Assembly (NCBI GenBank): GCA_050084515.1
Contig: CM114271.1
Span: 38,688,001-38,752,000 of the forward strand
Source: Blasia pusilla
Lineage: Eukaryota
DNA: 64,000 bases
Direction: 5' to 3'
Below the pieces are notes generated by a model that worked only from the letters and a program-made list of their open reading frames with translations, was not told where the DNA came from and searched no databases. Both the position numbers and the translations under genes were made by a program. The number at the start of each line of letters is the position of its first letter. Position 1 is the first letter of the stretch. This document shows positions 12,554 to 42,371 of this stretch, in pieces.

Positions 12554-13136
12554 TGTCGTGCGAATCCACATCGTCATACAACATACATCGTTGAAATACC
12601 ATACTCACATACATACAGAATATAGACGAGAGCATCCAAAAACACAAGTGTACCACAACTGAAATCCGTGAAAGACCTACTGTCATAAAACACGTATAGA
12701 ATCACATACAATCGAGCCAAACCCACTCCACGATGGGAGAATCCAGGTCGAAGCTTGCGGGAACCACCATAGCCAAGAGCTCTACTCACTACCAAGGCTA
12801 ACTCCCAACGCAACAGGCTCAACTCAAAGAACTAACGGTTCTTTGAGTGCACTCCACACTATATCCTCCAACCTAAGAGCGGGCCCTACTGGAAAAGTCA
12901 CCCTCAACTGAGTAACCCCCAACCCTATGTATGAAACCGCATCTCTACCTAGACATTACGGCCCTACATAAGGTATGGCCTCTACTAGCACACTATACTC
13001 AACGGCATAATCCGTATGGTCATGACAGCTGTCGTGCGAATCCACATCGTCATACAACATACATCGCTGACATACCATACTCACATACATACATAACATC
13101 GACAAGAGCATCCACAAACACAAGTGTACCAAAACT
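12554..13136 (-). repeat. composite 3' terminal repeat of DNMT-gypsy copy 1 (plus order A1-B1-gc-A2)
   Basis: The 107-bp A segment occurs twice (12554-12660 and 13030-13136). The 366-bp B segment (12662-13027) recurs at 21993-22358. The internal junction reads CATGACA-GC-TGTCGTG. Confidence 0.92.
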
Positions 13137-13137
13137 T

Positions 13138-13147
13138 GCCCCCCTAA
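13138..13147 (-). promoter_or_regulatory. putative polypurine tract of DNMT-gypsy copy 1
   Basis: Minus strand TTAGGGGGGC lies immediately before segment A. The same motif is at the same position in copy 2 (33582-33590). Confidence 0.7.
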
Positions 13148-13308
13148 CTGGCGGTTAGGTTCCTCTAACTCCCAGGTATCCCTATACATCTACTACATGC
13201 TATACACCTTCATGGATGCACGAATCAGAAGGCTGGGTGCTAGGTTGACCCATCGTTAGTCGCACATCTGTAATCCATATCATGCAAAGATCAAGTAATC
13301 TACCTCTC

Positions 13309-14690
13309 CTAAGTACATCGAAGACAAACCCACCTTCCAGTAGGAACAAAATCCATACGTGGAGTCAAACACATCATGTGCCAACCCCTAGAACACCGAT
13401 CATACACCAACATACGGGCTACGTTTCTAGCAGACCCACACAACATGCACCTCAAACTAGCACGTATTATGGCTAAGCTTGGGTCAACAGTACCATCCAC
13501 ATTTGGAAGATGACATGACGCACAATTACGCACATGGTCCTTCCAAACAACTCCATCACAACCCTCCAACATGAGAACTCCAGAAGCTAACACCTCTCAC
13601 ACTCGTAAAATAGTGCGGCCTGCCATCACATCCAACGTTGTTAGTGCAATCTTCTGCAAATAGACATAGTCCCCCACATGGAACTTACAAATCGATGGTC
13701 GATAACCTCCATCCCGAATGGTTGCATACCGCAACGTATCCCTGTGTTGAGCAATGGCAAGATTCTCAAAGATTGTTGGCATAACTCTCCGAAAGAGCTT
13801 TGCACGTTGAGAACACACTTTCATCCACGTCTATGGGTCATCAAGGTTCACCACCTTACTAGACTCCCGATGAATTGCTACTAGCAAGTCTGGATCTTGG
13901 CCGTATAACAGAAAATAAGGTGAGAAGGAAGCCAAGGATGCTTGGCGACTGAACCTATACCCCATGGCTAACCATGGCAAGTGAATATCCCAATCTCCAA
14001 GATGCCCCTTCTGTAGGACATACTTGCGCAATGCCCTCTTCACCATTTGAACCACACGCTCAGCCAAACCATCCGCCTCTGGATGATCTCGAGACATGGT
14101 CCGATGATCAATCAACACCTTGTCACACAAGACCTAAAACTCACCCTCAAACTTTGTACCCTGGTTGATCAACACTTTAGCTGGTGCACCAAAATGACTA
14201 AGCACTCTATCAAGAAACGCATACGCCGTTCCCTCACTTGCCATGTCCGGTAATGCCACCAACTCAATCCACTTGGAGAAGTGCTCCACCATCACCAACA
14301 CATATCGATGATGTCGTACAGTCAACGGCAACGGTCCCCCAAAGTCCACACTCCAACGGTAACCCAACCCCATAATAGGCAAGGGGTGTAAATGTGGTGT
14401 AGGGGCATTGAATGATGCCCTCACCCGGTCACAAACCATACAATGTGACACCAATTTCTGCACCTCAGTATGCATGCCACGCCACCAATACTGACCAAGG
14501 AGTAAGCTATACGTACGCTTTACCCCAAAATGTTCCAACTCCTCATGGGCATGTCACACAATGCGCTCTCTTTGAGCCAAATGCGGCACTACTTGTACTC
14601 TACCATCCTCCCACACACGGAGAATATGTGTTCCCTCCAATCGATACCTCTTAGCACCTTGAAGAACACGGTCTCGCTCCTTGGCGCTCA
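13309..14690 (-). pseudogene. gypsy integrase with C-terminal PHD finger (copy 1)
   Basis: H-H-C-C zinc motif (HFGVKRT...CMVC), WSVDFGGP, VEHFSKW, NQGTKF, HPEADGLAERVVQ, then CMLC...YDRC..GWHMMCL...GRWVCLRCT. Confidence 0.9.
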
Positions 14691-14965
14691 CTATGCCTGG
14701 CACCCTTCTTGTCCGTAGGAACTCCAACACCAACGCATCATCATGAATATCATGCTGACCGTCCCATCATCTCCAACCTTAGGATCTGAAGGCTGGCCAT
14801 CTACCCTCTGACTAGAGTAAGATGTCATGTGGTCCTCCATACTAGAGTCCATCCCTAACCAACATAAAAAGGCAGATGCATGCCAACCTGGCACCATCTC
14901 CTCATCAACCTTGCCATGCCATCTAGCCCTAGTTGCATCCTCTTGGCTAGTACATGGGTTCCTAC

Positions 14966-16435
14966 TCAACCCATCAGCATCAAGGTTGGCAACTCCAGGT
15001 CTATGTACCACCTGGAAGTCATACTCCTGTAAGATAAGACCCCTGCAAGCTTCCCTGTAAGCTTGTCAGACTCCATCAACCACTTGAGCGGCTGGTGATC
15101 AGTAACAAGGGTAAACTGTGTGCCAAACAAGTAACACCTAAAGTCTGCCACAACCCACACTACTGCCAAGCACTCTCCCTCATATGAACTATAGCGCGAC
15201 TCCGTTGCATTATTCGAACGACTTGCATAGGCCACCACAAACTCCATGTGCTCATCATCATGTTGTGTCAACACCGCTCCAAGTCCCAACCTACTCCAAT
15301 CAGTGTGTAATTGAAATGGGCGCCCTCTGATAGGTCTCCTCAAGATAGGCGCAGTCACCAACTGGGCCTTGAGCTCCACTAAAGCTCTCTCCTGATCATC
15401 TCCCCGGTGCCACTCCTGATCTGATTTCAGCAATTGGTTCAAAGGCTTTGCCATAGCACTAAATCCCTTCACATACCTCCGATAGTAGTTCGCCAATCCC
15501 ATGAATGCCCGAACTCTACTCACATCTACCGGAAGAGGAATAAGTGCAATAGCCTCCTCCACCTTTGCTTGCTGAACTCCCAAACCACCTGGATAGATCA
15601 CATGACCCAAGTACTCAACATCCTCATGGAAGAACTTACACTTTCCAAGATGCAAACGTAGACCATGAGCTTTCAACCGCTTAAACACAATATGCAAATG
15701 TATATGATGCTCCTCCACCGTGTTACTGAACACCAAGATATCATCAATGTAACACCAAAAAAAATTCAATCCTGCTAGGATCATGTCCATCACTCTCTGA
15801 AACTCGACAGGTGCATTCTTCAACCCAAAGGGTAAGAATTTCCATTGGTACAAAAAATCCTTGCCATGAGAGTTGACACCCCAAAATGATGTCTTGGCTT
15901 TGTCACTCTCTCGAATTGGCAACTGATGGTATCCTGCCCGAAGATCCAAAGTACTGAAAATCTTTGCTTGTCCCACCACATCAAAGATCTCCTCAAGTGT
16001 AGGCATGGCATACCTATCGGCCTTGGTCTGCCGATTGATAGGGCGGTAATCTCCACACATCCTGCTAAAAAGGATGTGCATGTAGTTGCCATGCACATCC
16101 TTTTTAGCAGGCGTGACAGTGGCTGATGCATACTCTCCATGCGACAACTCCACTAATCGAGCCTCCAAAAGGTCCAACGTCCTACTCTGAATCATGTCCC
16201 TCTCCATATCACTATATCGGTAGGGACGACGGAAGATTGGCGAATCACTAGCCAAATCAATCCGTATACCGGGTCCAACCAAAGCACCCAACTCCTTCAT
16301 GCTAAAGGCAAAATAACTCCTATAAGCACGTATGAATTGTGTCAAACGTCGTTTCTCACCTCCCCTAAGCTTGGGCCCAAGTAATGGCTCCCAAGTCTCC
16401 TCTACTGGTACACTAGAGGGAGAGGACGACGCCAT
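14966..16435 (-). pseudogene. gypsy reverse transcriptase and RNase H (copy 1)
   Basis: RMCGDYRPIN, STLDLRAGYHQ, LPFGLKNAP, CYIDDILVFS, YLGHVI, FMGLANYYRRYV, LHTDWS, VAYASR, YEGECLAVVW, VTDHQPL. Confidence 0.95.
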
Positions 16436-16689
16436 TGGCCCCTATGCAACCCCCTCACAAGATGGTACACCCTTAGCTACACCATCATCTGAGCAAATAA
16501 CTCCTCCACTAGCATGAGCAACCAACTCTACATGCCCAGCCATTACATCCCATTTACTCCAAGGATGCAAAATACTATTCTCCTCGCCCCTAGCCGATGT
16601 CTCTACCATCCCGGTAGCCATTGAGCTCATCATAAGGGGTGGAAGACCCATAGACATAGTCCAAAGTCGACGTTGCTTGGCCATACCAA

Positions 16690-17650
16690 GACTCAAAATC
16701 CAGGTCAAACAATTCAGGTCCATGGCCTGACCCAACGCATGATGTCGTGAAGCCTCACAAATGGAAGCAACCGTTGTCACACCAGTAGCTAATCCTATCG
16801 CACGCTCTCTCTCATCAGCGTTAGGCTCCACCAACTGTTGCACATGAGAATCCCATACAAGCCCGGGACCACCTTCCCTGTAGGCATGTGACGAGGGAAA
16901 ACTTACAAATGTGGGTAGTTCCATCCTAGGCTCGCCCACACGGTTCACTACTGCCATGGGTGACCGATCAATAACCCTCACCACCTGAGAAAGTCGCCCA
17001 ATATCCAAGATACTATACACTGTAAGGCAAGGATCCCACTGCACTGCATCATATGCTCGACGTAGAACCTCCCTAGGCAACAAGTTTGTCCAACACAAGC
17101 GTGGATGATGTGCACACGAGCCAACTCGCGCTGCATCCAACAACACCGCTAGTCCAATCCAAGACCGCATCTCATGAACACTTGCCATCATCCGGGTCCG
17201 AGTGTCACCCAACAATGAAACATTCTCCAGAATGTAAGATGAAGTACGTGCTTGATGAACCTAAAGATGTCATAACACCCGTAACATCTCCCAAAACAAT
17301 CGAAACCTAGGGTCATGTAATCCCTCACCACGAAGAGCACGTGTATGACCCTGACATGGCCATCCAACAATCACCAAATCCACAGGACAAACCCTCTCAA
17401 GGTCCTGCGCCCCCAACAATGCAATGTGTGACGGCAAAGCACGTTGGTACCCACGAATAGCTGATGGAGGAAACAACTCAGGATATCTCCGCATCAACTG
17501 ACGAATATGTTGGGATGAGACTCTCTGGGCCATCTCATCTTGCTCTATATCTCCGCACAGGAATACCGGCCTGCAACATTGCAGCCAAACCATTGCTAAT
17601 CCCACCAAAGAGATCAAACACACAAATGCCCTCTGGTGGATACTGCCATA
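16690..17650 (-). pseudogene. C5-cytosine DNA methyltransferase domain (DNMT3-like) inside pol, copy 1
   Basis: Motifs in canonical order: I VFDLFGGISNGL, IV DLVIVGWPCQGH, V GLHDPRFRLFWEMLRVL, VI YIL(ENV) across a frameshift, VIII SCAHHPRLCWTNL, IX ERERAIGLATGVT, X RHHALGQAMDLNCL. Confidence 0.9.
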
Positions 17651-18099
17651 CAATGGGTGTAGTATCCAAAGGGGATAACCCAATTGGACCAGAAGTAGGA
17701 GTCCGCCGTGGGGCCTCCTCTTCCTTGTGAGGTATAACAGTCTCACACCAAGCCTCATGCACTAGGCGATCAGCCTCTTGCCGTAGTGCACCGCATGAAC
17801 ACCAAAGTGGCACATCCAACGATGAGGATACCATTGCTGCAAAACTAGGGACCTCCTCTACCTCCTCATGCACAAGAGAATCCATAGCAGAAAGATTACC
17901 CTCCAAAGAGTCTCCTGGCCAAGTGACTACTCCACAAAAACCATCCACAGATGCTAACACCGTCGCGGGAAGCCTTCCTGGTCGATACCCATAAATACAT
18001 CTCGCAGGAACCTGGCTCATACGTCCATCCCCGGACTGCCAACCAGGTCTATAAGACGATGTCTAAGTCCAGTAGTCCATCTGAAAACCCATCGGGTAC

Positions 18100-18848: not shown

Positions 18849-20495
18849 CTAGGGAAGCCTAACCTGCCTCCCAACCTCACCCCTCTGTGGATCCAACTCC
18901 ACAGTAGCACCACGTGGCTCTGACGCTCGAGTGGCTCCTCTCGTAACTGCAGATGATGCCTCAACATGTGCTACACTCGCCATATAAGAGAGATCATCCC
19001 CTCCATAAGAGGTGGAAGCCCCTGCTCCCGAACTTGCTCTATGCTGGATACCAGCCATAGTAGCCAACTTCTGCTCCAACTGCTCAATTTTGGCAGCCAG
19101 AGCTAACTCTATCGTAGTGATAGGGGTAGCCAACGTAGGCTCTCCAACCAATGGTCCATCTCTACCATCCCTACCACCTTGGCCTCTTGGAGCTACTCCA
19201 CCACGGCCGCGGCCTGATCTCAACTCTGGATGAAGATCAAAGCAGCGCTCTCGAGGATGACCTGGTCTCCCGCAATGATCACATTGAGTTGGGGCCAAAT
19301 GAGGCCCATCCTCCAAAGTCCGTCTCCCATCCTCTTGGGGGAAAAACCTCCTAACATGATCACCTCCACATGTCCAACATGATTGTCCTTGCTGCGGGGC
19401 AGCAAATGAAGGCAATGGTCTCTGGGCAAGTGTCCCTCTAGGACCTAAATGAGGTCGTGTGTACCCCCCACAACTCCCACTACTACTACTACCACCACTA
19501 CTACGAGACTGTGAGGTGGAGTGCTAAACACGAGAAGTAGTAGTTGTATCCCTACTGAATGCGGATGCCACCACTCTCTCCTCCACAATGTTAAGCTCAA
19601 TCTTGTCAAATAGAGCAAACATATGGGTCAATGTGGGTGAATCATCACTCATAAGAGTAGCATCACGTACCCTACGGCGCAATTCTCTGTCCAAGATCCC
19701 ATACCAAAATTGGAGTGCATGAGCCTCACTCACACCATGGGTAAGTGAAATCAAGCGTCGCATACGAGTGTATGCCTCACGAAGACTCTCACCAGTCTTT
19801 CGCTCAAATTCCTGAAGACTCCTCAACTTCTCTATCTTCACTCCCTGATAGTTCTTCTTCAACCTCTTGAAGAACTCTGCAACCGGGCTGAACGATGGTG
19901 GGGCACTAGTACCTCCACTAGTACCCCCACTGGTACCTCCACTAGTACCCCCACTCCAGCTCGTACTTGTACCACTCAACGTCGGGCTGGCTGGAATAGT
20001 AGGAGCACTACTACCAATACCACAATGGGTGATAGACACATAGCCTGGAGACCAATGTTGTCTACACGCCTCAATCTCAGCAACATGGTCCTTCCTAAAC
20101 TCATGGTTATCGTCCATGGATGGTCCCTCCAAGTGCTGAAACGACCCCTTCCAAGCCAAGAAGGGTGTAAACAATGTGGCGTTCCGCAACATCTGCATAT
20201 CATACCACGTATCAAACTCCTGAATGAAGTCCTCCAACTCAATGGTGCCCACTGCACCCGAGTATCGTCGTGGGCCCTTCATGGCCCCATATATCCCGTC
20301 CATGTTCCAACTCAATGGAGCTGCAACACTCGATAACAACGTAGAAGACTCGATGTTTGGAACACCCTTGTCCTCCTCTTCATCAACCTTCGAAAGTGGA
20401 AAAGGTAGCCGATACCTCAATCCACTCCATGTAAAACCACCATTGTCCGCACCACGGTCCCCAACCAGACCAACAGACAGCTCTGTGATGACCAA
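18849..20495 (-). pseudogene. gag with two zinc knuckles (copy 1)
   Basis: Retrotransposon gag-like GESLREAYTRMRRL...QFWYGILDRELRRRV, followed by CWTCGGDHVRRF and CDHCGRPGHPRERC. A 12-bp tandem repeat encodes (SGGT)n at about 19906-19955. Confidence 0.85.
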
Positions 20496-21992
20496 CGCCG
20501 ATGCCGTACCACCACCAAATCACCACCACTAAGTAATCGAGTGACGTCGATGTCGCTATACTAGCTCTACTAGCTATGGGTGTAGGCAACCTAACCTGTC
20601 ATCACCACAAGAAGCCTCCGGCGGTCTATTGGTCATCACTCCGGCCTCACTATTGGTAGCACACATGAGTAAAACTACTCTGGAAATCAATGTCAACCCT
20701 AAAAATGGGCGCGCAAGCAAGAAGCAACGATGGAGGGGATCCAAACATATGAAGTCCAACGACAACCCTCCAATCGCAAATGGAAATCAAGCTAACAAAA
20801 TCCACCAAACATGGCGCCCCCTGAATCCACAGAACCCACCACAAAATTCTAATGCAATAGCTACTCCGCCGTTAGTCGATGACTTGCTAGTCGCACTCGC
20901 AGCCCTTAAAAATATCACCTGCATGGAGAGGCTACACCGTACTATGCGTTAGAGGTCCATCAACCAAAAACTCGAGATGCATAAAGCGCCTAACACATCT
21001 CCGAACAACACCAAATGAGCTACACCAGTGTGTACACTGGCATAGTTAAGAACTCAGCAGTTAAACGTCTTCCAGGCAGAATAGCCCAAAGATGGGTGAC
21101 CAATTATGCAACACTTAACTCACAAATCCTGCAAAAACTGCCTCATACCCAAGCAAGCAAGCAAGCTTGCTTGCTCCTTGCTCCTTACTCCGCCTCTCAC
21201 CCCCACTCGCCCCGAGCTACCACGAGTTGCCTCGAATCCTCAAAACGCTGAGACATGCCACGTTTGCCATGCTTCACTATGGAGAGAGGCCCAACCAAGG
21301 CGCCCCCAGCGGGATAGGCGTCTCCAACAACAGACGAATCACCAACCAACCAGCCCCTCCGATTTGTTGTCCACCATAGCCAGACCTTGAGCTAGTGCGC
21401 AAAATTTTGATCAGCAATTACTCCACAAATCCTCAACCAAGATTGAATTTTTTTCAACTTAAATTCAATTGGCCACCATATCTATCTCTCCACAAAAAAT
21501 CAGCTACAACCGAGCCCTGTACTTTGAGCTAAAAATCAGACAAACTTGATGTCCATACACCTCCAGAATCACAAATCCGACAGGGCTTCCGCCCAGATTC
21601 ATGCACACAGAAATCCGCAACGCTCCACACACTCAAGCAGATAGCTTCACATGAGATCACAATACAAGTAGTAACATGAACCTCTCACCCAATCTGGATG
21701 AACTTCAACAGTGCTTCTGCACTCCAAGCTCTCCACATCAGAAAACCGTTGAACACGAACCAGAATCTTCAATCCTTGATAACTTCCAACTCCCTTAACA
21801 AAATCCGACGATCTAAAGCGCGTTGGAAAGCTCTCAGCAAGGCGCTTTTTTCCCACACAACCACACCAGATTCACACCTCCAACATAGGCCACAAGCCAC
21901 GAACATCCACGGCTGAGTACACAATCAGCCCTAACCAGATCCTACTGATCCACGATCGAAGCTACCATCGATCTACTCTAGTTCTTTGAGTT

Positions 21993-22358
21993 AAATGCAT
22001 CAAAGACATACTATCATAAAACACGTATAGAATCACATACAATCGAGCCAAACTGACTCTACGATGGGAGAATCCAGGTCGAAGCTTACTGGAACGACCA
22101 TAGCCAAGAGCTCTACTCACTACCAAGGCTAACTCCCAACGCAACAGGCTCAACTCAAAGAACTAACGGTTCTTTGAGTGCACTCCACACTATATCCTCC
22201 AACCTAAGAGCGGGCCCTACTCGAAGAGTCACCCTCAATTGAGTAACCCCCAATCCTATGTATGAAATCGCATCTCTACCTAGACATTACCGCCCTACAT
22301 AAGGTATGGCCTCTACTAGCACACTCTACTCTACGACATAATCCGTATGGTCATGACA
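21993..22358 (-). repeat. 5' terminal repeat (segment B only) of DNMT-gypsy copy 1
   Basis: Matches 12662-13027 over 366 bp and lacks segment A. It contains a TATA-like motif (22191-22195) and an 11-bp hairpin (22153-22179). Confidence 0.92.
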
Positions 22359-23801
22359 TACGGTTCATATAAGAGATCTTCTACTAGTGGAAGCAAGAAT
22401 TTATTCCAAAGTGTTGCAGTTTGAGCATGTGTGTTGTACGATATAATAATTGCAAATAAGCGACAAAGTAAAGAACCTATACGAATTGTAGTAGCTTCTT
22501 CAAAGCAAGAGAACACTTCCCTATCATCCTCAAGAAGTCCCAATTGGATAGAAGCCTCCTTGAATGTTGGACATAATACCCCATTAACAATTCTCTAACA
22601 TTCATACGTAGTTGCTCCTCGAACATGATGGAGAAGTAATCTCAACCAATGATGTTCTCCTTCACCTATGAGGAATTAAACTAAATGAGTTTATCCCAAC
22701 ATATAGATACATCGCTTTAGAGGTGGAATATAAAAGAAAGAAGTTGTGAGCATTTACTTGGATGAGTAAGGTATAAGCGACCAATGGGATGGCCACAACC
22801 ATTTTGTTTTTGTACCCTACGAATCCATCTCTTGTTACTCCAACGATAATAAGAAGGAAAATCTATGTATAGATGTTTTCCAGCACTAGAGTCAGATAGA
22901 TTGGTTGCAAACCATTGGGTCAATATTGTCTATCTTTTTAGTTGCAAAATATCTCCAAGAGAGACAACATCATTGAAGTAGACTAATTGTTGTTCCGGAA
23001 GATGGACTGCTAGTTGTACGATGCTTGGAAGTTCAACATGTAGACTAAACTTAAAGAGACGCCAACATGCCTCCGAAGAAAAAATATATTTGGAATAATG
23101 AGAATACCAAATATTTGAGTACGGACAATCACATGAAGTTGAGAAGTAAAATATAATGCATCAGAGAAGTCAATCCATAAAATCATACCTCGCATCAAGA
23201 TATGATGTTGTCTCGTCAATAACTTCAATTACATTGGATGTATCCATATCCTTTGACAACTTAAATGACACAGCAGCAGATCCTTTATAAACATATTTGT
23301 ATAAGTACTTGACAGCAGAAACACTACTTGTAATCTCCAAATTAATGTGACAATCAAATAGGATGCATAACATCGGATCGTAAGGTACAACCCAACGATT
23401 ATCCAATGAATGTTCGCTCTTAATTATTGCCCTTCAATTCTCCAATCTACAAAAACACAATAACAATCGTAATTAATCATGAATGAATGTATTAGAAGGA
23501 ATCATGAATACATATGCCTTAAAAATAAAAGGGTCCTTACCTACGATATATCGTATAACCATCTTTTGTTTGGGTAGTGTTGGACGCAAAAGCTTAAGGA
23601 TAGCCTTTTGTACATTTTTTTGTTTCCTTATCCATACACGGAGCATTTGGATTTAATGGTCCATATGGTCCGTGAACCATGCAATTAGTAACGGTAGAAT
23701 ATAACCTTGGATGGGTAGATTGATCAGGGATTGTAGCTGAAATGATACGATCATAATCAATTTTGGTACGTGGTTTATCCTCATAACCTAGAACAATAAG
23801 G

Positions 23802-24442
23802 TGTCGTGCGCATACACATCGCTACACAACATACATCGCTGTCACCGAACACACACACAAACACGCATGATCCCATGCTAACTCATGGCATCCAAACAAC
23901 GAGACAAGAAGAACCAAAATATCTCCAATAAAGTAAGATCCAATCTCTCTCTCCACCATCTCACACCATAGCTCTCAAAGGTGTGCACTATCTCTCATGT
24001 CAAACCAAACCCACTCTCCTAATGAGAGGTTTGGGTTACACTCACAAGGCAAGGTACCATAGCTCCGCCGCCTCATGCCAAGAGGTTCAACAAAGAGAGA
24101 ATGAGCTCTCAAGCTCTCTCTCCTTGAGGTATACCCCTCTCCTCTCCCAAGCTCTCTCCATGGTAACCTATTCTCCCAAGTCATCTCCTTGGCTCTTGAC
24201 CTGATGTAGGAGGTCAAGGGCCACTTACCAAAAATAGTAAGTCAATCATATACTCAAAATGGTACTTATCTAAAATAGTAAATTCCTCAATATGGCTCCA
24301 AATGAGCCGAAACGAAGGGGAAACCTGTTATCTCAGGTTTCAAGGGCCTCGATGAGGTCACCTCGACCTCATCGGGCGTGTCCTCCACTACTCATGAAGG
24401 CGCTTTATTAGATCCCACCGATCTATCCTAAAAGACGTGACA
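23802..24442 (-). mobile_element. solo terminal repeat of the DNMT-gypsy copy-2 family
   Basis: 641 bp, near-identical to 32810-33450, with TG...CA ends and an exact 4-bp TSD AAGG (23798-23801 and 24443-24446). It splits the Helitron codons GLPHVHVL|IVLG. Confidence 0.95.
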
Positions 24443-27400
24443 AAGGACATGCACATGCGGTAATCCTCTTTTTTGGAATTCCACCACATGGATGCATCCT
24501 ACAACTCGGCCTAATATCTGCTTCTTGATGATAAGTCGTAACAACTGCTTCTTTTTCTTCGCAAAAACCCGCACGACCAAATCTGGTCGGTCTGCAGTTG
24601 ATTGGCCAGGTAATAGGGCTGATGTAATCTTCTCCTACTTTGGATTGCATGTCATGGTTAAGAAGTAGTTAGGCTTCCCAAAATGTCGTACAATTGTCAT
24701 TGCATCATGATATAATTGATGCATATGACGTGGCCCTCCAGTAAAAGAAGAAGGTAATATAATGCGTTTCCCAAGCCTTCGGCTATCCGCATCTTGTCGA
24801 TGCATGGCATCCTTTACCCCTTGACATAATTCAGCCCTAAACTCCTTCTGATTTAAGCGTATCCATGATAATCATTGCATTTCCACAGTGGCATAGAGGT
24901 CAGCGATATATTCTTGAGTAAGTTGACGAAGCCGCAATAAGCGATTGTCATCTTCTCCTCCAACCCGCGTTTGAAGTCGAAAACATGCAAATTGCAAGGC
25001 CATAATACATTTTGTTCTTCTTTCCTCAACAATATCACCATAAACTATGTCCTCATCCATGCAATCATCTGAAGGTTCAGGATGTCCCTCCTCTCCATGA
25101 ATAATATGGCCCAATCATCACGATTCTCTACAACCTTCAATTCGCCCAAAGGGTATTCCAAGACGCCAACCTGCTTCACCATAGATAAATAACAAAACAA
25201 AGTGTAAGGGAATATATGCTTTGTTGAGGTCGGATATACGTTTGACTCCTCCTCCATGTAGTCGTATATTTATATCACGATGCTCAACGTGTTCACTTCC
25301 ATCACTCGGCAAAATAGCAGCAACTTCAGAAGCAATTGGTAAGTTATAGCGCTTTGCATCAAGACCTCTCTTACTTGCCTTGAGAATAATCCACATATTA
25401 AGATCACTTGCTGCATATGGCATATGATGAAAGATCTTCACATATGGATTGCATTCATGTAACATGTCTTGGAGACCTTTCAAAATATCCATATTAAGAT
25501 TAGAAGATGTAGACATAACTCTAACACGATTTTCCAATTCATTTGTAGTATCATGGATGTATAGTTGAGCAAATTGGGGATGTCCCCCTATATTAGGATG
25601 TAAAGGTCCAATGGAATGATAAATCCTGCCTTGGACCCTAAAGTGTCCAGTATCACCAATTTTTTCGTTTACATGTACCCCAGTAGATGCAAGTTGAAGT
25701 GCCGAATTATAAGCTCGAGCATGTATAAGAAAATGAACGCTTCTAGGACCAACACCCGAAATCAAGGATTTCAGAAATGGAGGAGATGATCTCAAGAGAG
25801 GTAAGTATATTCTTCCATGGCCACAACACATGCCATATGGTGAGTCACCAAATTTAGTACCTTTGACCACTTCACATTTCCAATACAAACATATCTCTGT
25901 CATAGAACCTAATGTATGATGACCGCTGATATGATTCAAACTCCTTTGTAATCGTAACTTATGAATATCACTTTCTTGAAAATTTGGCCTCCTTGCAAGA
26001 TTGAGTAATGTATTTAATCTTAAAACTCTATATCAAGGGTAGACGACGCACAAATTATAGAAGTATTTGGTATAGTGGCACGTTGTGGAGATAACAAAAC
26101 TTCATTAGGAGACATGGCATCTACTCTTGACCTTGATTCATCCCCAAGTTGGGCAAAAGTCGACGAATTGCTGGAAACTTCATCTTGAACAGGAATAAGA
26201 AGAGTGGTCGACAAATTGTTGATAAATCCATCTTGAACTCGAATAGGAAGAGCGGCTGAAGAATTTTTGACAACTTCATCTTGAATTGGAATAGGAGGAG
26301 TGGTAGGTAACTCAACTTGTGGTGGCCCAATCGTGGATGTATTCTCGATAACTTCATGAAATGCACTTTCAACTAACTCGAGTCTTGGCGATATATAAAT
26401 ATAGTCCGTTGATTGTTCGCTCACTTCTTGATTTTCTTCTACTATTATTCCATCCTTATTGGAAGGCTTGAGAAAATATGTCAAAATATGGATAAGAATA
26501 AATAAAAATCAAATATGGAGTAAATCAAGTAGTTATGAAGTGAATCAAATATAAAAAGTTAGATATAGGTACCTATTCAATGGAATATGTGCAATACTCT
26601 CAGGTTGAACTTGACCATTAAGCCCTTTCCTTCTTTTTCTATACTCTCCATAGTAATTCCTCTTTTTTTCTCTGAGAGCTTCCATTCTATCAGCTCGAAT
26701 AGCACGCTTTTGTTTTTGGGCTTCACCACGTAGAACTTTCCGAAAGTCACGTATATTGACAGGATTCAATGGGATTGGAAGTTTGGAACAACACATGAAT
26801 GTTAAAAGATTACGAAATCAAATGAAAAGTCAATATTTTGTGGGGTGGGAAATTGGACATGCTAAATGAGTGTCGATGTAGTAAACTTACGTTGGAGATG
26901 TTTTAGGTCAGAGTTCATCTTCAAGATGTGTTTGTTGTGCTAAGATTTCCTTGCGACAGACACGCTTTTTTTTTTTGTGCATTCGCACGCATCAATTTTC
27001 GGAAGCCACGCAAATCCGTAGGATTCGATGGAAGAGGAAGTCTATGCAACAATTGGGTTTATTGCATGAGAAAAATATATTGTCGAGAAAATGGTATGTA
27101 AGGCATCATGATTGAAATGGAAATAAGGTGCTTACTTCCTTACCCTAAGCAAAGGTTCTTACATCGGGGAGGTATTCTTCGATACTTCAATATGTCTTCC
27201 CGAACTTTGTTGTGAAATTGGCATATTTGTAATAATACCAAGTGGTCGTCTCTCCCTGTTTAGTGACAATCCGCCAACACTCACCATCTACATGACACAT
27301 AATGGAAGTATTGAGAATTGAAATAAAATGACCAAAAGAATAAATAATAAAAAGAAAAAAAAAGAAAAGAGAAGAAAAGAAAATAGGAGAGAAGAGAAGG

Positions 27401-32644: not shown

Positions 32645-32809
32645 TTATGTCCATTGCTTCACCATGTACTGACGCACGTGCCTTTCTTGCATCCATCTGA
32701 AGTCACGCAATGCTTCTTGCGCATCTTCTAGATCCGCCTCCGCAATCCAAGTCGCCTCTTTCACATGATAGCCTTTCCACTTGACCAAGTACTCGTACTT
32801 GGTGGCCCT
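32645..32809 (-). pseudogene. chromodomain of the chromovirus integrase (C-terminal half)
   Basis: ATKYEYLVKWKGYHVKEATWIAEADLEDAQEALRDF. It joins ETILRSTRR (42325-42355) once the nested element is removed. Confidence 0.9.
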
Positions 32810-33760
32810 TGTCGTGCGCATACACATCGCTACACAACATACATCGCTGTCACCGAACACACACACAAACACGCATGATCCCATGCTAACTCATGGCATC
32901 CAAACAACGAGACAAGAAGAACCAAAATATCTCCAATAAAGTAAGATCCAATCTCTCTCTCCACCATCTCACACCATAGCTCTCAAAGGTGTGCACTCTC
33001 TCTCATGTCAAACCAAACCCACTCTCCTAATGAGAGGTTTGGGTTACACTCACAAGGCAAGGTACCATAGCTCCGCCGCCTCATGCCAAGAGGTTCAACA
33101 AAGAGAGAATGAGCTCTCAAGCTCTCTCTCCTTGAGGTATACCCCTCTCCTCTCCCAAGCTCTCTCCATGGTAACCTATTCTCCCAAGTCACCTCCTTGG
33201 CTCTTGACCTGATGTAGGAGGTCAAGGGCCACTTACCAAAAATAGTAAGTCGATCATATACTCAAAATGGTACTTATCTAAAATAGTAAGTTCCTCAATA
33301 TGGCTCCAAATGAGCCGAAACGAAGGGGAAACCTGCTATCTCAGGTTTCCAAGGGCCTCAGCAGGTCACCCTCGACCTACTGGGCATGTCCTCCACTACT
33401 CATGAAGGCGCTCTATTAGATCCCACCGATCTATCCTAAAAGACGTGACAGTTGTCGTGCGCATACACATCGCTACACAACATACATCGCTGTCACCGAA
33501 CACACACACAAACACGCATGATCCCATGCTAACTCATGGCATCCAAACAACGAGACAAGAAGAACCAAAATATCTCCAATCGCCCCCCTAGCTGGTGGTT
33601 AGGTCCCTCTAACTCCAGATAGCCATCTATCCCTACCTACCATGACATACATCTCTCGGACGCTAAGAGCAAGAAGGCCGGGTGCTCATGTGGCCCCATC
33701 GTTAGTCGCCTCCTTGTCATCCATGTCATAGACACAAGTCGGAATGTAGAACTACCTTCT

Positions 33761-35147
33761 CTATGTACATCTGGGACACATCCATCGTCCCTGAGGAACC
33801 CTAGTGAGAGGTGGCGTCAAACATGCCATATGCCATCCTCTCGAACACCCATCACAGACTAGCATCGTGGCCGCACCACGGGCAGAACCACACAACATAC
33901 AACGCAAGCCTGCAGGAACTACTACTAAGCTCGGATCTACTGTACCATCAATGTTAGGAATGTGACATGGCGCACAATTACGCACATGGTCCTTCCATAC
34001 CATACCATCGCGTCCCTCCAGCAAGAGAACACCCGATGGCAAAATGTCACGCACTCTCAGGATAGTGCGCCCTGCAGTCACATCCAACGTCGTCGGTGCC
34101 GTCTGCTGCAAATAGACATAATCTCTTTGATGAAACCTCCGGATAGTTGGTCGATAACCACCACCTCGAATAGTCGCATACCTCAACGTATCCCGATGCT
34201 GTGCAATCGCCAAGTTCTTAACGCCATGGGCATCACTCTCGAAATAACTCACCCTCTCGAGAACATGCTCGCACCTATACATCTGGGTCATCAAGGTTCA
34301 GCACCTCACCAGCATCTCGACGAATGGTCGCAGGTAAATCTGGCTCTCGGCCATAAAGTAGCAAGTACGGTGAAAAAGACGCTAAGGATGCCTGCATGCT
34401 GAATTTGTATCCCATCGCCAACCATGGCAACTAGAGGTCCCAATCTCCTAGGTGACCTCTCTGCAAGCCATACTTGCGTAAACCCCTCTTCACCATCTGC
34501 ACAACTCTCTCCGCTAATCCATCCGCCTTAGGATGATCTCGCGAAGTCGTGCGGTGGTCGATGAGCGCCTGATCACACAAGGCTTGGAACTCACCGCGAA
34601 ACTCGGTACCCTGGTTTGTCAACACCTCAGCTGGTGCGCCATAATGACTTAGCACTCTGTCAAGGAAGGCATAAGCTACTCCCTCACTTGCTTTGTCAGG
34701 CAAAGCAACCAACTCGATCCACTTCGAGAAGTGCTCGACCATCACCATCACCAACACATAACGACTATGACGCTCCGTCAAGGGCAAAGGTCCTGCAAAA
34801 TCCAAACTCCATCTATACCCTAAGCCCATGATCGGTAATGGATGCAACTGTGGAGTCGGAGCATTGAACGATGCTCGGACCCGATCACACACCATGCACC
34901 TGGCAACAAACTGCTGAACGTCAGTCCGCATGCCTCGCCACCAATAATGAATCTGGAGCAAGCTATACGTCCGCTTCACCCCAAAGTGACCCAACTCCTC
35001 GTGGGCATGCTGCACTAGTCGTGCTCTCTCCAAAGGATGCGGCACTACGCGTACTCTGCCATCCTCCCAAACCCTCAAAACATGTGTCCCCTCCCAACGG
35101 AACCGTCGGCCCATTTGTAGGATCCGATCCCGCTCTCTAGCATCCAT
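33761..35147 (-). pseudogene. gypsy integrase with intact C4HC3 PHD finger (copy 2)
   Basis: HAHEELGHFG...CMVC, WSLDFAGP, TNQGTEF, DGLAERVVQ, then CMLCGSARGAATMLVCDGCSRGWHMACLTPPLTRVPQGRWMCPRCT. Confidence 0.93.
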
Positions 35148-35402
35148 GGTGCTCGCAAGGCGCCGAGACGAAGGTACTCTAAGACTACTCCATCATCATG
35201 AATATCTCGGCCACTTGTTGTGTCCTCACTGGCCTCGGGATCCAAAGACTCTCCACTAGACCTCGCCATCGAAGTCTCCACACTCTGGCTCTCCATAGCC
35301 AACATGCCTAAATAGGCTGACGCGTGCCATCCTGGCACCGACTCCTCATCACTCTCTCCATGCCATTGAGCTCCAGTCGCATCTCGCTGACTCGGGCATG
35401 GG

Positions 35403-36835
35403 TTACGACTCAACCCATCTGCATCCTGGTTGAGCGTTCAGTCTATGTACCACACGAAAATCATACTCCTGCAACAACAGAGCCCATCTCGCAAGCTTCC
35501 CTGTAAGCTTGTCGAACTCCATCAACCACTTCAGTGGTTGATGATCAATGATGATGGTAAAGGGGTTGCCGAATAAGTAACACCTAAAATGCGCGAGACC
35601 ACACCGCATGACCAAGCACTCACCCTCATACGAGCCGCCTTCGCCTCTGCGGCGTTGTTCGAGCGGCTAGCGTAAGCCACCACAAACTCTCTACCCTCAT
35701 CATCATGCTGGGTGAGCACCGCTCCAAGCTCCAACATGCTCCAATCTGTGTGCAACTGGAAAGGACGCCCCCTCATCGGTCTCCTCAAGATGGGTGTGGA
35801 CGTCAACCTGTCCTTGAGCAACTGAAATGCTCGCTCCTGCTCATCCCCCCAGTGCCACTCGTGATCCACCTTGGTGAGCAAGGTCAGCGGCTTTGCAATC
35901 GAACCGAATCCCTTGATGTATCGCCGATAGAAGTTCGCCAATCCCATGAATGCGCAAACACGGCTCACATCTGTAGGGCGTGGAATGCGTGAGATAGCCT
36001 CTACCTTCGTCTGCTGAACACCAAGGCCCCCTGGTTATATCGTATGACCCAAGTACTCAATCTGGTCGTAGAAGAACTTGCACTTGCCTAGATGTAGCTT
36101 CAGCCCATGTAATTGCAATCGTCGAAACACCTCCTCTAGATGTTGCTCGTGCTCCTCAAACGTGGCGCTAAAGACTATGATGTCATCAATATAACACCTA
36201 GCAAAATCCAGACCAGCCAAGATCCTATCCATGACCCTCTGAAACTCAGCCGGGGCGTTCTTTAACCCAAATGGTAAGAACCGCCACTGGTACAAACAAT
36301 CCTTCCCGTGAGGATCGATGCCCCAAAATGCCGTCTTCTGCCTGTCCTCCAATCTGATAGGCAGCTGATGATATCAAGCTCGCAAATCCAATGAACTGAA
36401 GACCTTTGCGTGACCAATCACATCAAAGATCTCCTCAGGGGTGGGCATGGCATACCTATCGGACTTCGTTTGCCGATTGATAGGTCGGTAATCCCCACAC
36501 ATCCGCCTATCCGTCCAATTGCCATGCACATCCTTCTTGGCGGGCATGACAGTGGCAAATGCATACTCTCCATGCGATATCTCCACTAGTCCAGCTCCGA
36601 CCAAGTCTTGGCTCTTACTCTGAATCAGAGCCCTCTCCATATCACTATACCTGTAGGGTCGTCGGAAGATCGGCATATCACTCGACAACTCAATGCGGAT
36701 CCCCGGTCCCTTCAGCGTACCCAAATCCTCCATGCTAAACGCAAAGCAGCTCCTATAACTCCTGAGGAACTGATGTATTCGGCGCCGCTCTCCTCCTGTC
36801 AACTTAGGGCCCATATCTGGCTCCCAAGTCTCCAT
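35403..36835 (-). pseudogene. reverse transcriptase and RNase H (copy 2), frameshifted
   Basis: RMCGDYRPIN, LPFGLKNAPAEFQR, CYIDDIIVFS, FMGLANFYRRYI, LHTDWS, IDHQPLKWL. Confidence 0.93.
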
Positions 36836-37179
36836 CGTGACTACGGTAGGACTCTCCGGCGCGGGTATCGGTGGTTGCTATGGTGCAACCCCGTCTCGAA
36901 CAACAACACTTGGCCGCTCTCCTGCAGCCAACTGCAAACTCTGATCTCCTCCACGTGCAATGCCCAAAACCACGCTCGATGTTGTGGCTATCATCTCCTT
37001 GCATACCTTCAAAACATCCCAAGAAGTCCAAGGGTGTCTCTCCCGATCTCCCCTGGTGCGTAGATCTCCTCGGGTCTCGCCCCCAGCCGTTGCCTCCACC
37101 GTCTCGGTAGGCATGGGGCTCACCAACGCAACATTGTGATCTGTCGCGATCTCATACGACGCCGCTCACCACTCCCAAG

Positions 37180-38140
37180 GCGAGGATCCATGTCAAGAAG
37201 TTCAGGTCCATCGCTGACCCAAGACATGGCGTCGCGTGATGCCTCGACATCGATGGTACGCTGCCGTCACTCTGTGGGAAATCCCATCGCCGCTCTCTCT
37301 CTCGGCGTTGGGCTCCACCAACCGCTGAACCTGGTCATCCCAAACCAAGCAGGATCGGCCTCCTTGTATGCACGGAAGCGGAAAACTCACAAACGTGGGC
37401 AAGGCGCCGGGCTTGCCTACCCTGTTGACCCCGATCGGCGGTGGTCGATCATCGTGCCTCACCGCCTCTGTGATCGGCGACTGGATCGAATGGAATCCAC
37501 TAACAAAGGGAGGGGCGCTCCACTCTCGCATACGCCCTCCATAACACCGCATGGGGCACCAAGTTGGTCCACCATAGAGGCGGGCGATGGGCTCTAGAAC
37601 CTACACTTGCCGCATCCAAGAACACTATTGGGCCGATCTAGGCACGCACCTGATGAGCACTCATCACGACCCGTGACCAAGAGTCTCCTAAGATCGGCAC
37701 ATTCTCCAGAATGTAGGCTGGAGAACGAGACTGGTGCTCCTGCAACTGCCGTAAGACCCTCAACATCTCCCAAAACAACCTGGACCGAGTGTCAGCCAAC
37801 CCGCTGCCTCGTCCAACACTCGATTGGCCCTGACATGGCCAACCAGCAATGACCAAATCAATGGTCCCTACCCGCTCTAAGTCCGGCGCCCCCAACAACA
37901 AAATATCCCTCGGTAGGGAATTCTGGTACCCTGTACTGCGGACGCAAACAATAAGTCGGGAAAACGTAGGCGTAATTGCGCCACATGTTGTAGTGAGACG
38001 CGCCTCGCAACATCATCACTCTCCACATACAAATCTTCGGCCAGACTCGCACTCTCGCTTGCAAAACAAAGACTAACCCGATTCTAATCACTCCAAAGAG
38101 ATCTAACACTCGAATACCCTCCTCCGGGTACACCACACAA
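37180..38140 (-). pseudogene. C5-cytosine DNA methyltransferase domain inside pol (copy 2)
   Basis: PEEGIRVLDLFG (motif I), DLVIAGWPCQGQSSVG (IV), GLADTRSRLFWEMLRVL (V), AYILENVP (VI), LVEPNAERE (IX), RRHVLGQ (X). Confidence 0.9.
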
Positions 38141-38599
38141 TGGGTGTAGTATCCAAGGGTGTCATCGTAGCACTCCCGCTACCTCGGGTTCCTCAGACTG
38201 TCACGCCTGGTGCAAACGCCTCGCTCCACGCTGATGCCGTGCACGTGTGCATCCGCTTAATCGTTGAAGCTCCTCGCCGAGCCCCACACCGGCACCTCTC
38301 CTCCACGGAATGATGCGGCTACAATAACACTCCTCTCCATAGAAATGTCGAACAGGAGTATCTCTGCATGGACATGTCCCTCAATCAAATCACTAGGCCA
38401 AGTGATGGGCACGCTAAATCTTTGCTAAGGTCGCCATCTCTCCTCGCCGTTCGATCATCGCACTGTGAATTGAACGGGTAATGAGCTAAGGCGCCCATCA
38501 CCTGGATCGCCATCCTGGTCGTAGGGACGCCGACTCCTCCCGTAATCCAGGGAAAACCCCATCGGGTATAACATCGCTCCACCAACCAAGATGTCGAGG

Positions 38600-40930
38600 A
38601 CTCAAAGATCGATCACTATCGCCTTGGCGCGCACCACGGACTCATCGCCAGGATGTCCGGCGAATACCCACCACAACCTCCTGTCGGGTGATATACTGTG
38701 TGGTACTCGCTCCACCCAAGGATGTCTATATCCGAAATGGACAACACTCCACATCGGCTCTCGTCAAGCCCAATCCTCGAATGACGCTTTCCCCAACATC
38801 AAGGGTTGCGCTCCCGAATCAACAAGGCGCTGCGGACTAAAAGATCTACCTCCGGGACTCACCAAGCTGGAAGACCTCTCCTCGGTTATCCAAAGCAACA
38901 CAACACCAGGAGAAGCCATGCACGCTCTATCGCAGGTCTAGCGGGCATCTCCGCCATCCTAGCGACCCCATGACCGCCATGAATCGGCGTGGATCGCCCG
39001 TGCATCCGCTCCAAGGGCAGGTCCATCACCTCCTCTGCAATCACCTCAACGTGATGCGGGAACTCCAACTCGCGCTCACATAGTGAAGCGGCCAGTAAAA
39101 AGCCTCGGCGGGCGTACCCCAACGTCATAACATCGGAAGCGAGAAAATAAAGGAGTGCGGTACACAACGGTGGCGCCCCAACAACGTGTTTCGACACATA
39201 GAGTCGCCGCTTTTCGCTTCTCCCATCGCCCTCCGTGCTTGCACACAACAACATTACCAACTCTCCGGGAACTTTGATGAGGACCCATCGATGGGGTCCT
39301 CATCGCTTCGGACAACGTGAAAGATTGAGGAAGCCTCGTTGTGGATCCAACTCTGTCGCTTCCAGCGTCACAAGCTGCGGCGGCCTCCATCTAGGCAACC
39401 CCGACATCCATCCGGGATCCTCCGGATCTCGGCTGCTCCATATGATGTCGATGCCACGGATCCGGCATCGGGTAACCTCAATGCCATAGCGGCAATCTGC
39501 TCCTGTAGCTTTTGTATCTAAGCAGCCATCCCAGCCTCACGTCCGGCATCTCCCTCGGCGCGTCTAGGTGGTGGTACTCTACCTCCTCCACGGGCAGCTC
39601 CACCACCCTGTCGGGCAACTCCAGCTCCTCGTCCCCCAACGGGACCACCTGGAGCACGATCTCTAGGCCCACTCGGACCGGCTACTCGCTCTGGTGCCCT
39701 CTCTAGCCCTCGGTCCAGACGTAACTCAGGATGTAAACTAAAACACCTGGCGCGTGTATGACCATACCTCTGACAATAGTCACACTGATAACCTCCTGGT
39801 GCAGCACCATCTCCTCCTCCATGCTATGGCACACGTCCATGACCCTGACGAGTGCAATCGCGCTGATGATGGGCTCCACCACATGACCAACAAGTAATAG
39901 TAGGCGGCTGCTGCTGAGCCGCATATGAAGGCGCAGGTCTCGTGGCACGGCCTCTCGGTATCCTCCCTGAGCTCGTGGTGCCCACGGTCAACCTATCTCG
40001 AGTCACGTTCTTTGCCGCAGGTGGTGCGAGACAATCGTGGATTGCTCGCCAGAACCCATGGTGGCTACGCTCTCCTCCGCCATGTTGCGCTCAATGTTCT
40101 CGGCGGTCCTAAAACATCTCTCAACGAGGGGAGGTGTTCATAAGAAGCACCCCTCCCGCACCCGTGTCCGCAGGTCGGTCGAAAGATCGCACACCATGAC
40201 CGGATAGCTGAGCCTCTATCACCCCCGAGTGGCGTTGATCAACCGGCGCAGCGAGTGTAAGCCTCACGCAAACTCTCACCCGGCGCCTGTGGAAGTCGTG
40301 GATGCTCTGCAACTTCTCCGTCCGTACCCCTAGTAGCTCGCCCTCAACTCAAGCAAAGAACTCAACCACAGGGTTGAACCGGGGACGAACCCGACTAGAC
40401 GGTGCAAACCTAAACCCTAAACCCGACTAGACGGTGCAATTGCTCCCGTGCGAGTGATCCCCCCTAAAACGTCACTAGTGGAAGAGGGAGTAGCCTCTCC
40501 TGACTCCTCCTCCTCATCTGGGAACGGCTCCGTCCATGACACATAATGTGGGTCATAGTAGAGCCTCCACGCCTCGATCTCACATGCATATCTCGAGAGA
40601 ACTCATGGTAATCGTCCATGGCGCCCCCTCTAAATCTTTGGAACATACCGTTCCATCTTTGTAAACGGGTTGAACTCTCTAGAGTGGCCCCCGGGAGTCG
40701 CACCAACTCCTAAACTCGCTTTAAAATCGTGCAACTCAATCGTGCCCCTCGCACTGAAAACCTCACGCGGTCCTCTACCCCGGTCGTCCATCTCGTACGC
40801 CCAACTGGTAGGACCACTCACAATGTGTGGCGATGTGCTCACAAACTCCTCTACACCCTCCCCCTTGTCTGACAATGACACAGAAGGAGGTCGAGGTGGT
40901 CCCTCACGTGGAGACCCTCGAAACCTCACG
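38600..40930 (-). pseudogene. gag and protease of copy 2, heavily frameshifted
   Basis: GTIELHDF, AMDDYHEF and CWSCGGAHHQRDC match copy 1 gag. LVDSGAQPLMLG lies near 38790-38830. Confidence 0.75.
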
Positions 40931-42371
40931 CCACTCCGCGTAAAACCTCTAGAGCTACTCTCGGGTTCACCACCTCGCCTCTCAAAGTCCCGAACAGACT
41001 CCGTGATGACCCTCGTGCCCCTCTCACCCGATCACTCTGAACCTCGTGAGGAATCCCTCAATCACTCATCCCAAACATGCGGCACTCGATCTACACTCTC
41101 TCTCCCCAAGACGTGTAACGTGCGGAAACACGCGGCGTGGTGCGGCAAATCGACCAGGCTATCATCTCATCGACAACCTACCCTCAACTCTGGACATCCC
41201 ACACAGGTCTATGTCCCCTAAACCACATACATAAATGATGCTCTCAGCATCCACACACCCAATATCCCCAAATAAATCCCAGAATCCCTCACACGTGCAG
41301 GGTAAAGGACCAGAATGGGTAACCTGAACACATGTCAATGTCGCTCCCCAGCAACTAAAAATCTCGACCCCAACTCGATCGTGGAGACAACTCCTCCAAT
41401 CAGCAAGTCATACTCCTCCCGTCATCGATCTTTGCTCAAAACTCCTCGATAGACAAATGCGGTCCCGGCCGAACGGTGCGGCGTTAAAGGCGACGAACGG
41501 CTACGAACGGCGCGGCCCTCGATGGTGGGATGCGGCACTCGGCGCATACCCTCCTCAATCAATAATAATCCCACACTCTGCTCCACAATGACGGTGCGGC
41601 TCGCGTCGAGATGGTGCGGTGCGCCACCCCAGCAGCGCACGGCGCGGCAATCGGCGGCGCGTTGCGGCTACGGGCGCCACGGCACGATACTCGATCGCCG
41701 CTCAGCGGCTACCAATCACAACATAGCAGCATGAAATCAAAACTCAAACACCATAACCGAGGTCATCGCCTTCATGGTTGATGAAGAAAGCTGCGATGAC
41801 GGTGGCGGCCAAAACAAAGTACGTGGTGGCGACGCAAGTCAAGGAATCAACGAACGTCATTGAAGACCCTCCACTCCGTAATGGCGGCAATGGCCACTCT
41901 CCTAATGAGAGGCTTGGGTTACACTCACAAGGCAAGGTACCATAGCTCCGCCGCCTCATGCCAAGAGGTTCAACAAAGAGAGAATGAGCTCTCAAGCTCT
42001 CTCTCCTTGAGGTATACCCCTCTCCTCTCCCAAGCTCTCTCCATGGTAACCTATTCTCCCAAGTCACCTCCTTGGCTCTTGACCTGATGTAGGAGGTCAA
42101 GGGCCACTTACAAAAATAGTAAGTCGATCATATACTCAAAATGGTACTTATCTAAAATAGTAAGTTCCTCAATATGGCTCCAAATGAGCCGAAACGAAGG
42201 GGAAACTTGCTATCTCAGGTTTCCAAGGGCCTCAGCAGGTCACCCTCGACCTACTGGGTGTGTCCTCCACTACTCATGAAGGCGCTCTATTAGATCCCAC
42301 CGATCTATCCTAAAAGACGTGACACCCTACGTGTGGAACGCAGAATGGTCTCAACCTCGAACTCTGGTTCC

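Follow-up and report, generated by a model that had tools for sequence, protein, structure and literature searches.

Split direct repeats and probable self-priming in a methyltransferase- and PHD-bearing Ty3/gypsy lineage of Blasia pusilla

Introduction

The Tcn1 elements and the Tf1/Sushi relatives are classed as chromoviruses and have ordinary long terminal repeats (LTRs). In Tf1 and Tf2 of S. pombe, Tj1 of S. japonicus, and the plant Tcn1 clade, the primer-binding site (PBS) has complementarity with the element’s own 5' end (PMC7175516, PMC4600332, PMC6317226). For Tf1, the first 11 nt are described as pairing with this site, with RNase H cutting between bases 11 and 12 (PMC7175516, PMC4600332). 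Among plants, REXdb predicts self-priming for Tcn1 and TAR only (PMC6317226). Reverse transcription, as laid out in PMC7175516, sets one end of the cDNA at the PBS and the other at the polypurine tract (PPT).

Other elements depart from the ordinary LTR layout. The PAT-like, Ngaro, and VIPER elements have split direct repeats of the form A1...B1-A2-B2 (PMC4157794, PMC6681497, PMC7192593), and the primer of DIRS-1 is given as unknown in PMC7192593. Cleavage of 2-LTR circle junctions by integrase is also reported for foamy virus and HIV-1 (PMC1180852, PMC4372172). LTR circles are usually called dead ends in retrovirology (PMC4372172), and whether they can be real integration precursors is an old question in that field.

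A Gypsy polyprotein with a cytosine methyltransferase was described in Klebsormidium nitens as KnitGypsy-Dnmt3 (de Mendoza et al. 2018, PMC5890265). According to the legend of Fig. 4c in that paper, the repeats are DIRS-like (A-coding-B-A-B), and the domains are those of Gypsy; the main text does not contain the words “priming,” “PBS,” “polypurine,” or “circular.” In the literature searched, the KnitGypsy name occurred in de Mendoza et al. 2018 only, and a 2026 preprint mentions the lineage in passing. In the mainly open-access main texts searched, no account was found of how this lineage primes or by what route it integrates. Another PHD-bearing element, the active Gypsy-7a_cRei of Chlamydomonas reinhardtii, has LTRs with subparts, and its left LTR is shown without the last 8 bp of the right one (PMC9940879, Fig. 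6).

The window considered here is a 64,000-nt stretch of the Blasia pusilla genome (assembly GCA_050084515.1, contig CM114271.1, forward-strand positions 38,688,001 to 38,752,000). It holds an element on the minus strand, from 22358 to 12554, that combines features of several of these systems.

A Ty3/gypsy element with the layout A-internal-B-A-B

The preliminary description of the window had treated the repeats of this element as ordinary LTRs. That view has to be given up. The layout is A-internal-PPT-B-A-B, not two equal LTRs bounded by a PPT and a PBS. The left end is repeat A1 (21992..22358, minus), which starts with TGTCATG and has no B before it. At the other side of the internal region, a PPT (13137..13150, minus) lies directly before repeat B1 (13030..13136, minus), followed by repeat A2 (12661..13027, minus; 94.5% to A1) and repeat B2 (12554..12660, minus), whose right end reads ...CACGACA. 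The seam between B1 and A2 is an uncut palindrome, GACAGCTGTC (13024..13033), which equals the right end, 2 nt, and the left end. A pair of ordinary LTRs with a truncated 5' LTR was rejected as an explanation since all sampled 5' ends begin at the same base without B: in the family of this element (family 1), 30/30 start at the first base of A1 with unrelated flanks, and in family 3 (below), 15/15 likewise have no B before A.

The polyprotein order is gag, C5 methyltransferase, reverse transcriptase (RT), RNase H, DDE integrase, and PHD finger, all on the minus strand. The gag region (18852..20519) is interrupted, has zinc-knuckle-like motifs, and matches PF03732 weakly (E 0.005). The C5 cytosine methyltransferase domain (16697..17761), also interrupted, matches PF00145 weakly in this copy, with E 3e-11 in the related element called copy 2. 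The RT and RNase H (14969..16441) are of the Ty3/gypsy type; the best solved-structure match of the RT is the Ty3 RT (E 7e-62), the next entry is at 1e-44, and retroviral RTs fall behind. The integrase (13600..14760) has an H2C2 finger and a core whose D, D, E residues, with their 35-residue spacing, are invariant in 18 relatives, the window copy being interrupted. A PHD finger (13312..13450; PF00628, E 3e-7) closes the polyprotein. No chromodomain match was found in the element, and the PHD finger takes that place at the integrase end. Similarly, a profile scan of 44 of the 52 element open reading frames of at least 70 aa gave no match to a tyrosine recombinase, and an element of that kind was rejected. 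Troyka was also set aside, since its CG...CG ends, 3-bp duplication, and animals-only range, as given in PMC12440569, differ from the TG...CA ends and 4-bp duplications seen here.

Judged by its domains, then, the element is a Ty3/gypsy element with a DNA methyltransferase (DNMT), a PHD finger, and a DDE integrase. It can be called KnitGypsy-Dnmt3-like, as it has both the C5 methyltransferase inside a Gypsy Pol and the DIRS-like A-B-A-B repeats, a kinship that is drawn from shared domains and layout as compared by description. The nearest named relatives among 120 protein matches listed are two Marchantia polymorpha proteins (72-79% identity), and no named K. nitens sequence is among them. In a FastTree RT tree of 122 rows, built without a Tf1 or Tcn1 reference, the element falls in a 97-row clade (SH 97) that is rich in PHD/DNMT proteins, has chlorophyte members, and lies apart from the chromovirus of the window. 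These relationships point to a liverwort as the probable host.

Several neighbors of the element can be mentioned. It sits in a repeat (10596-12546 and 22363-23230, compared with 61150-63993), of which an empty paralog is found at 63104-63112. Related repeats at 25121-26032 read like a Helitron Rep by eye, with no Pfam match. The chromovirus (31372-32809 and 42325-47995) is split inside its chromodomain by copy 2; its 5' LTR is tandemly doubled (46791-47995), and it has a TGGTATCAGAGC site at 46353-46364.

A probable primer-binding site complementary to the element’s own repeat

At the inner edge of A1, the minus strand reads AACTCAAAGAACTA (21992-21979), the exact complement of TAGTTCTTTGAGTT at 22165-22152. 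The 14-nt complement noticed in the preliminary description is therefore real in this copy, but its length does not hold family-wide, where it is 12-13 nt and the 14th base is private to this copy. The base matching the first A of the site is C in 29/29 other family-1 copies. A1 therefore extends to 21992, and what the family shares is the site ACTCAAAGAACTA (21991-21979, minus), 0 nt from the A1 end. By its complementarity, this is the candidate PBS. Among the same 29 copies, chosen by a query containing the site, the complement is kept over 13 nt in 24 and over 12 nt in 26. Position 13 varies in 4/29, a weak hint that the working primer of family 1 may be 12 nt long. An anchored complement of such length was seen in 0/5000 dinucleotide shuffles of the repeat, the longest being 12.

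The segment also lies where a transcript might begin. A TATA-like motif, ATATA (22191..22195, minus), is found 26 nt upstream of the start of TAGTTCTTTGAGTT, as described earlier, and at the same offset as the TATA of families 2 and 3; a promoter role is presumed. The putative self-primer (22153..22164, minus) would be the first 12 nt of the transcript, or 13 if the start is at 22165; an initiator-like YA points to 22164. Behind the final GT of the primer is a TGRRCC motif (22147..22152, minus), common to the three families as TGAGCC, TGAACC, or TGGGCC, which may be the cleavage context. The primer segment is also the 3' arm of an 11-bp inverted repeat (22179-22169 and 22163-22153), again in agreement with the earlier reading.

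A tRNA primer was looked for in 30 distinct tRNA genes, which come from 30 of the 63 loci listed and represent 15 anticodon types, and was rejected within that set. There is no TGG behind the 5' repeat, and the post-repeat sites begin with AC. No tRNA of the set had more than 6 nt of complementarity, the best matches being 5-6 nt. TGG-type sites are indeed present on other elements of the window, as the preliminary description held, although its count was one short: there are four TGGTATCAGAGC sites (3827, 46353, 59274, and 60210), compared to 0.25 expected. We take these to be of the initiator-tRNA type.

Covariation in three families

Covariation between the segment behind the TATA and the post-repeat site had been proposed as a check of self-priming, and it was found in three families whose A repeats have no significant similarity (best E 0.1-0.95). 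The families have three different post-repeat sites, each complementary to its own segment about 30 nt behind the TATA. The spacing from complement to PBS is 161, 160, and 161 nt in families 1, 2, and 3. In all three, the last two bases of the complement are GT, with TGRRCC next, and a YA falls within it 30-32 nt after the TATA’s first T. Shuffling gave 0 matches in 5000 trials for each family. The sites of families 2 and 3 were predicted from the hairpin behind the TATA before the sequences were fetched.

For family 2, 20 5' regions were fetched by way of their 3' ends, and A1 was recovered in 18. All 18 have ACAAAGAGAGAATGAG or a close variant; the full 16-nt complement is present in 8 of them and an intact 13-nt complement in 11. 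Copy 2 (32810..42324, minus; duplication AGGG) has the same layout and belongs to this family, not to that of the 22358-12554 element. The equivalent site is absent from copy 2, as was noted before, but the cause is a deletion of about 830 nt that takes the A1 end and the PBS, and other family-2 copies carry their own site. Family 3 was found by a pattern search. Its first four regions comprised two complete A1 copies, one truncated A1, and one family-2 element; ACATGAGAAAGATG stands behind A1 in both complete copies, and the exact complement is present in 12 of 15 further copies, chosen by a query containing the site.

Pattern and protein searches of the genome for a fourth family yielded families 1-3 only. 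First-look candidates per query numbered 2698, 6497, and 4293, which are not copy numbers. Outside this genome, the relatives with DNA context came to one metagenome contig, too short for repeats; 66 loci from a viral collection were distant, and the best 4 of the 66 had no such repeats. Solo A-B units are also found, one of family 2 in the window (23802..24442, minus; duplication CCTT) and one of family 3 elsewhere (L188:946-1561; duplication CCCC).

The hairpin and the RNA reads

The 5' arm of the inverted repeat (22169..22179, minus) lies upstream of the presumed start, so that its place in the RNA would be the 3' copy, where it would mask the primer segment. When RNA was folded from the YA, the predicted pairing of primer and PBS was 0.99 for this copy, 0.95 for family 1, 0.74 for family 3, and 0.22 for family 2. 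With the upstream arm added, it fell to 0.02 for this copy and 0.00 for families 1 and 3. The family-2 fold is ambiguous, with 0.22 from the presumed start compared to as much as 0.65 with the arm. In families 2 and 3, the site is perfectly complementary to the 3' arm and is not identical to the 5' arm, which relies on G-U for its pairing; this points to a hairpin of the sense RNA. Such a hairpin would be able to arise only in the 3' repeat copy, hiding a spare primer there. No structured RNA family matched the repeat at E 0.1.

Three raw RNA-seq runs were picked by their species label, and 6-12% of each was scanned; 635-680 reads per run fell on 20400-22500. Most of these are 90-95% alike, so they derive from other copies. 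The family is transcribed in sense, first mates on the plus strand being read as minus-strand RNA, as in most stranded libraries. The leader and gag are covered to a depth of about 5-50 and A’s first half to 100-190; for 22033-22103 the depth is 67-69, and for 21962-22032 it is 19-37. On the upstream side, 116-157 reads per run cross from B into A; downstream, crossing from A into B was seen, among the groups listed, in one group of 6 reads (one run, one contig). It follows that, as for an ordinary R/U5 boundary, most 3' RNA ends lie inside A2, and that B2 is mostly outside the RNA. No pile of RNA 5' ends is present at 22164 among those listed, and depth there is dominated by 3'-derived reads; the comparison has no power at that position. 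A sequence search of sequencing runs had no RNA run among the matches listed.

Two features of the reads stand by themselves. A 289-nt back-jump inside A (22037-22325), with GTAT at both sides, was seen in 3, 8, and 5 reads of the three runs and could have arisen by tandem duplication within a copy or by template switching. At 22197, on the RNA 3' side just before the TATA motif, 26 first mates start in one of the three runs; these may be PCR copies.

Integrated ends and seams

Integrated copies have TG...CA ends, with exact 4-bp target duplications in 15/18 family-2 pairs and 5/9 family-1 pairs. The flanks of the window copy, CGTA and TGCG, are not an exact duplication. When its central 2 nt are removed, the two halves of the B1|A2 palindrome are the integrated ends TGTC and GACA. 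The PPT ends with GGGGGGCG in all three families, and B follows it immediately; A, in turn, runs right up to the PBS. At the A2|B2 seam, the PBS-side and PPT-side ends are bluntly fused. The ends defined by the PBS and the PPT are thus found joined inside the right-hand repeat, not at the edges of the element.

The seam varies slightly. An extra base is present in 3/35 family-1 seams (G twice, the last PPT base, and T once), in 6/35 of family 2 (A, the first PBS base), and in 0/5 of family 3. These bases match primer remnants. On a star-like, weakly resolved tree of 29 of 30 rows (L105 was left out as misaligned), five family-2 carriers need 5 changes, of which the strong branches force 2. B1 and B2 have no fixed differences. 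At subfamily (non-deamination) sites they agree in 39/40, 38/38, and 37/37 elements, while deamination sites are discordant, which argues that one template gives rise to B1 and, by recopying, to B2. Gene conversion between repeats can add to this concordance. One case of it, with the 5' end as donor, was observed at L094:1690-1702 with L123, where the B1|A2 seam is replaced by the element’s own left flank (AGGAAGGG).

The mirror form, A-B-A-internal-B, was looked for with a query taken from a natural B-A-PBS sequence, and the best 40 matches did not contain it. Four of the 40 have the whole of B in front of A-PBS, all with a PPT upstream and thus tandems, and 2 have a short B remnant behind unrelated DNA. 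In the family-2 tandems L132, L290, L293, and L294, the order is internal-PPT-B-A-PBS-internal, with an ordinary-looking complete LTR between two bodies. In a different arrangement, L016 (5' end) and L045 (3' end) bound an A-internal-PPT-B element with the duplication ATTC and without A2-B2; recombination between B1 and B2 could produce it, and so could the insertion of a circle with one repeat. The last 45 nt of B are 85-96% conserved across the three families (13023-13069, 33446-33492, and L131), while A shares only TGTCA. The conserved end of B is probably a one-sided subterminal signal for the integrase.

Discussion

Very probably, the element primes reverse transcription with the 5' end of its own transcript. 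This proposal of the preliminary description is supported by the covariation in three families and by a search of 30 distinct tRNA genes without a match beyond 6 nt, the start site being deduced from the promoter-like sequence. Transcription would start inside A1, about 30 nt behind the TATA and near 22164. The first 12-13 nt of the transcript would then anneal to the site immediately behind A1, so that a loop of 160 nt is closed; the complementarity and its covariation are observed, and the pairing is computed. By analogy with Tf1, an RNase H cut after the final GU would free a 3' OH. In the 3' repeat copy, the upstream hairpin arm would cover this segment and so keep it from competing. The likeness to Tf1 is that the PBS is complementary to the element’s own repeat, with no match longer than 6 nt in the tRNA genes compared. 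The element differs from Tf1 and Tcn1 in its PHD finger and DNMT, the lack of a chromodomain match, the 12-13-nt primer, the masking hairpin, and the split repeats.

One could ask whether another RNA serves as the primer. It is highly unlikely that a half-tRNA or other small host RNA primes and that the self-complement is a regulatory fold, for example, for dimerization or translation. Half-molecule tRNA priming is reported in plant copia lineages (PMC6317226), and the tRNA set compared comprised 30 distinct genes of 15 anticodon types. Three different host RNAs would be needed, yet every site follows the post-TATA segment of its own family at a distance of 160-161 nt, the best tRNA match is 5-6 nt, and the sites begin with AC, not TGG. 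Equally improbable is a primer from the 3' copy, in which RNA cut or ending after the A2 segment pairs with the PBS and the hairpin is a processing signal. The hairpin does appear to act at the RNA level, given its G-U pairs, and it can form only where U3 is transcribed, that is, in A2. However, it hides the segment (pairing 0.00-0.02 in families 1 and 3), the depth past 22153 stays at 67-69, higher than the 19-37 of the following bin, which shows the 5'-only level, and in each of the three families the segment starts at the TATA+30 initiator. In family 1, 11 letters are common to the site and the 5' hairpin arm, as might be expected of a duplicated protein-binding motif without a priming role; this, or plain chance, has next to no likelihood given 0/5000 shuffles per family, a fixed spacing, and sites in families 2 and 3 that fit the complement of the 3' arm and not the 5' arm itself.

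From a self-primed start, the standard strand transfers would yield a linear B-A-internal-B-A molecule whose ends, set by the PPT and the PBS, have no integrase signal; the seam positions are what is seen of it. The two ends would be fused, either by ligation to a 2-LTR circle or by an end-to-end RT jump. Integrase would then cut GACAGCTGTC in the upstream repeat and insert A-internal-B-A-B with a 4-bp duplication, the product that is observed. If the ends of B-A-internal-B-A are joined and the upstream palindrome is cut, the result is precisely A-internal-B-A-B. A likely history, judging from these seams, is end-joining followed by an integrase cut at the internal site. That the joined form is specifically a closed circle is conceivable, if a little short of probable. 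Self-priming and end-joining with the internal cut, taken together, are on balance probable. A symmetric circle holds two palindromes, so A-B-A-internal-B would also be expected; the mirror product was not found, and the cut must therefore be biased. Perhaps, as a guess, this is due to the palindrome lying only 105-140 bp from the joined ends.

A rather unlikely alternative keeps self-priming and dispenses with the end-joined intermediate. Here, a transcript, perhaps a minor one, runs through B2, and RT template switches build a linear A-internal-B-A-B whose ends are already TGTC and GACA, the A|B seam being an inherited relic. This accounts for the single permutation seen. Some RNA does cross from A into B (the 6 reads noted above), and DIRS-1 cDNA, long assumed to be circular, is reported as mostly linear (PMC7192593). 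Against it, no primer or PPT is present at the integrated ends, while a PBS and a PPT meet exactly at the A|B seam in three families. The variants at the seam correspond to primer remnants and occur at scattered points of the tree, fixed differences between B1 and B2 are absent, and most 3' RNA ends lie inside A.

The end-joining route has partial parallels elsewhere. As in foamy virus and HIV-1, a DDE integrase would cut a palindrome of two joined ends. In the accounts of those viruses, the palindrome is the circle junction and the product an ordinary provirus, whereas here it is a templated part of the repeat that lies away from the joint, and a permuted product results. Like PAT, Ngaro, and VIPER, the element has split direct repeats and solo A-B remnants (compare the SIRE of VIPER). 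Those elements are described as integrating via a tyrosine recombinase, in contrast to the DDE integrase, 4-bp duplications, and Ty3-type RT found here. The repeats of Gypsy-7a_cRei are much longer than those here, but both are PHD-bearing Gypsy elements, and its 8 bp could possibly be a tiny B in the same permutation, which is a guess.

Self-priming alone would be a modest extension of a known mechanism. A broader reading is that a widespread green-plant LTR lineage with a DDE integrase requires end-joining, has moved its integration signal to an internal palindrome, is self-primed, and disarms the second primer with a hairpin; as a whole, it stands about evenly between right and wrong. If it is true, self-priming arose apart from Tf1/Sushi, and split direct repeats are a consequence of the route with any integrating enzyme. 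This anatomy also suggests a way in which such repeats could be rebuilt and primed, which is relevant to the tyrosine recombinase elements. In practice, an abundant family will be drawn wrongly by LTR finders built on the assumption of two equal repeats with a tRNA site. The primer, PBS, PPT, seam, and palindrome are now named as short, testable sites, and the genomic copies, in their hundreds to thousands, look like a record of a circle-type integration route.
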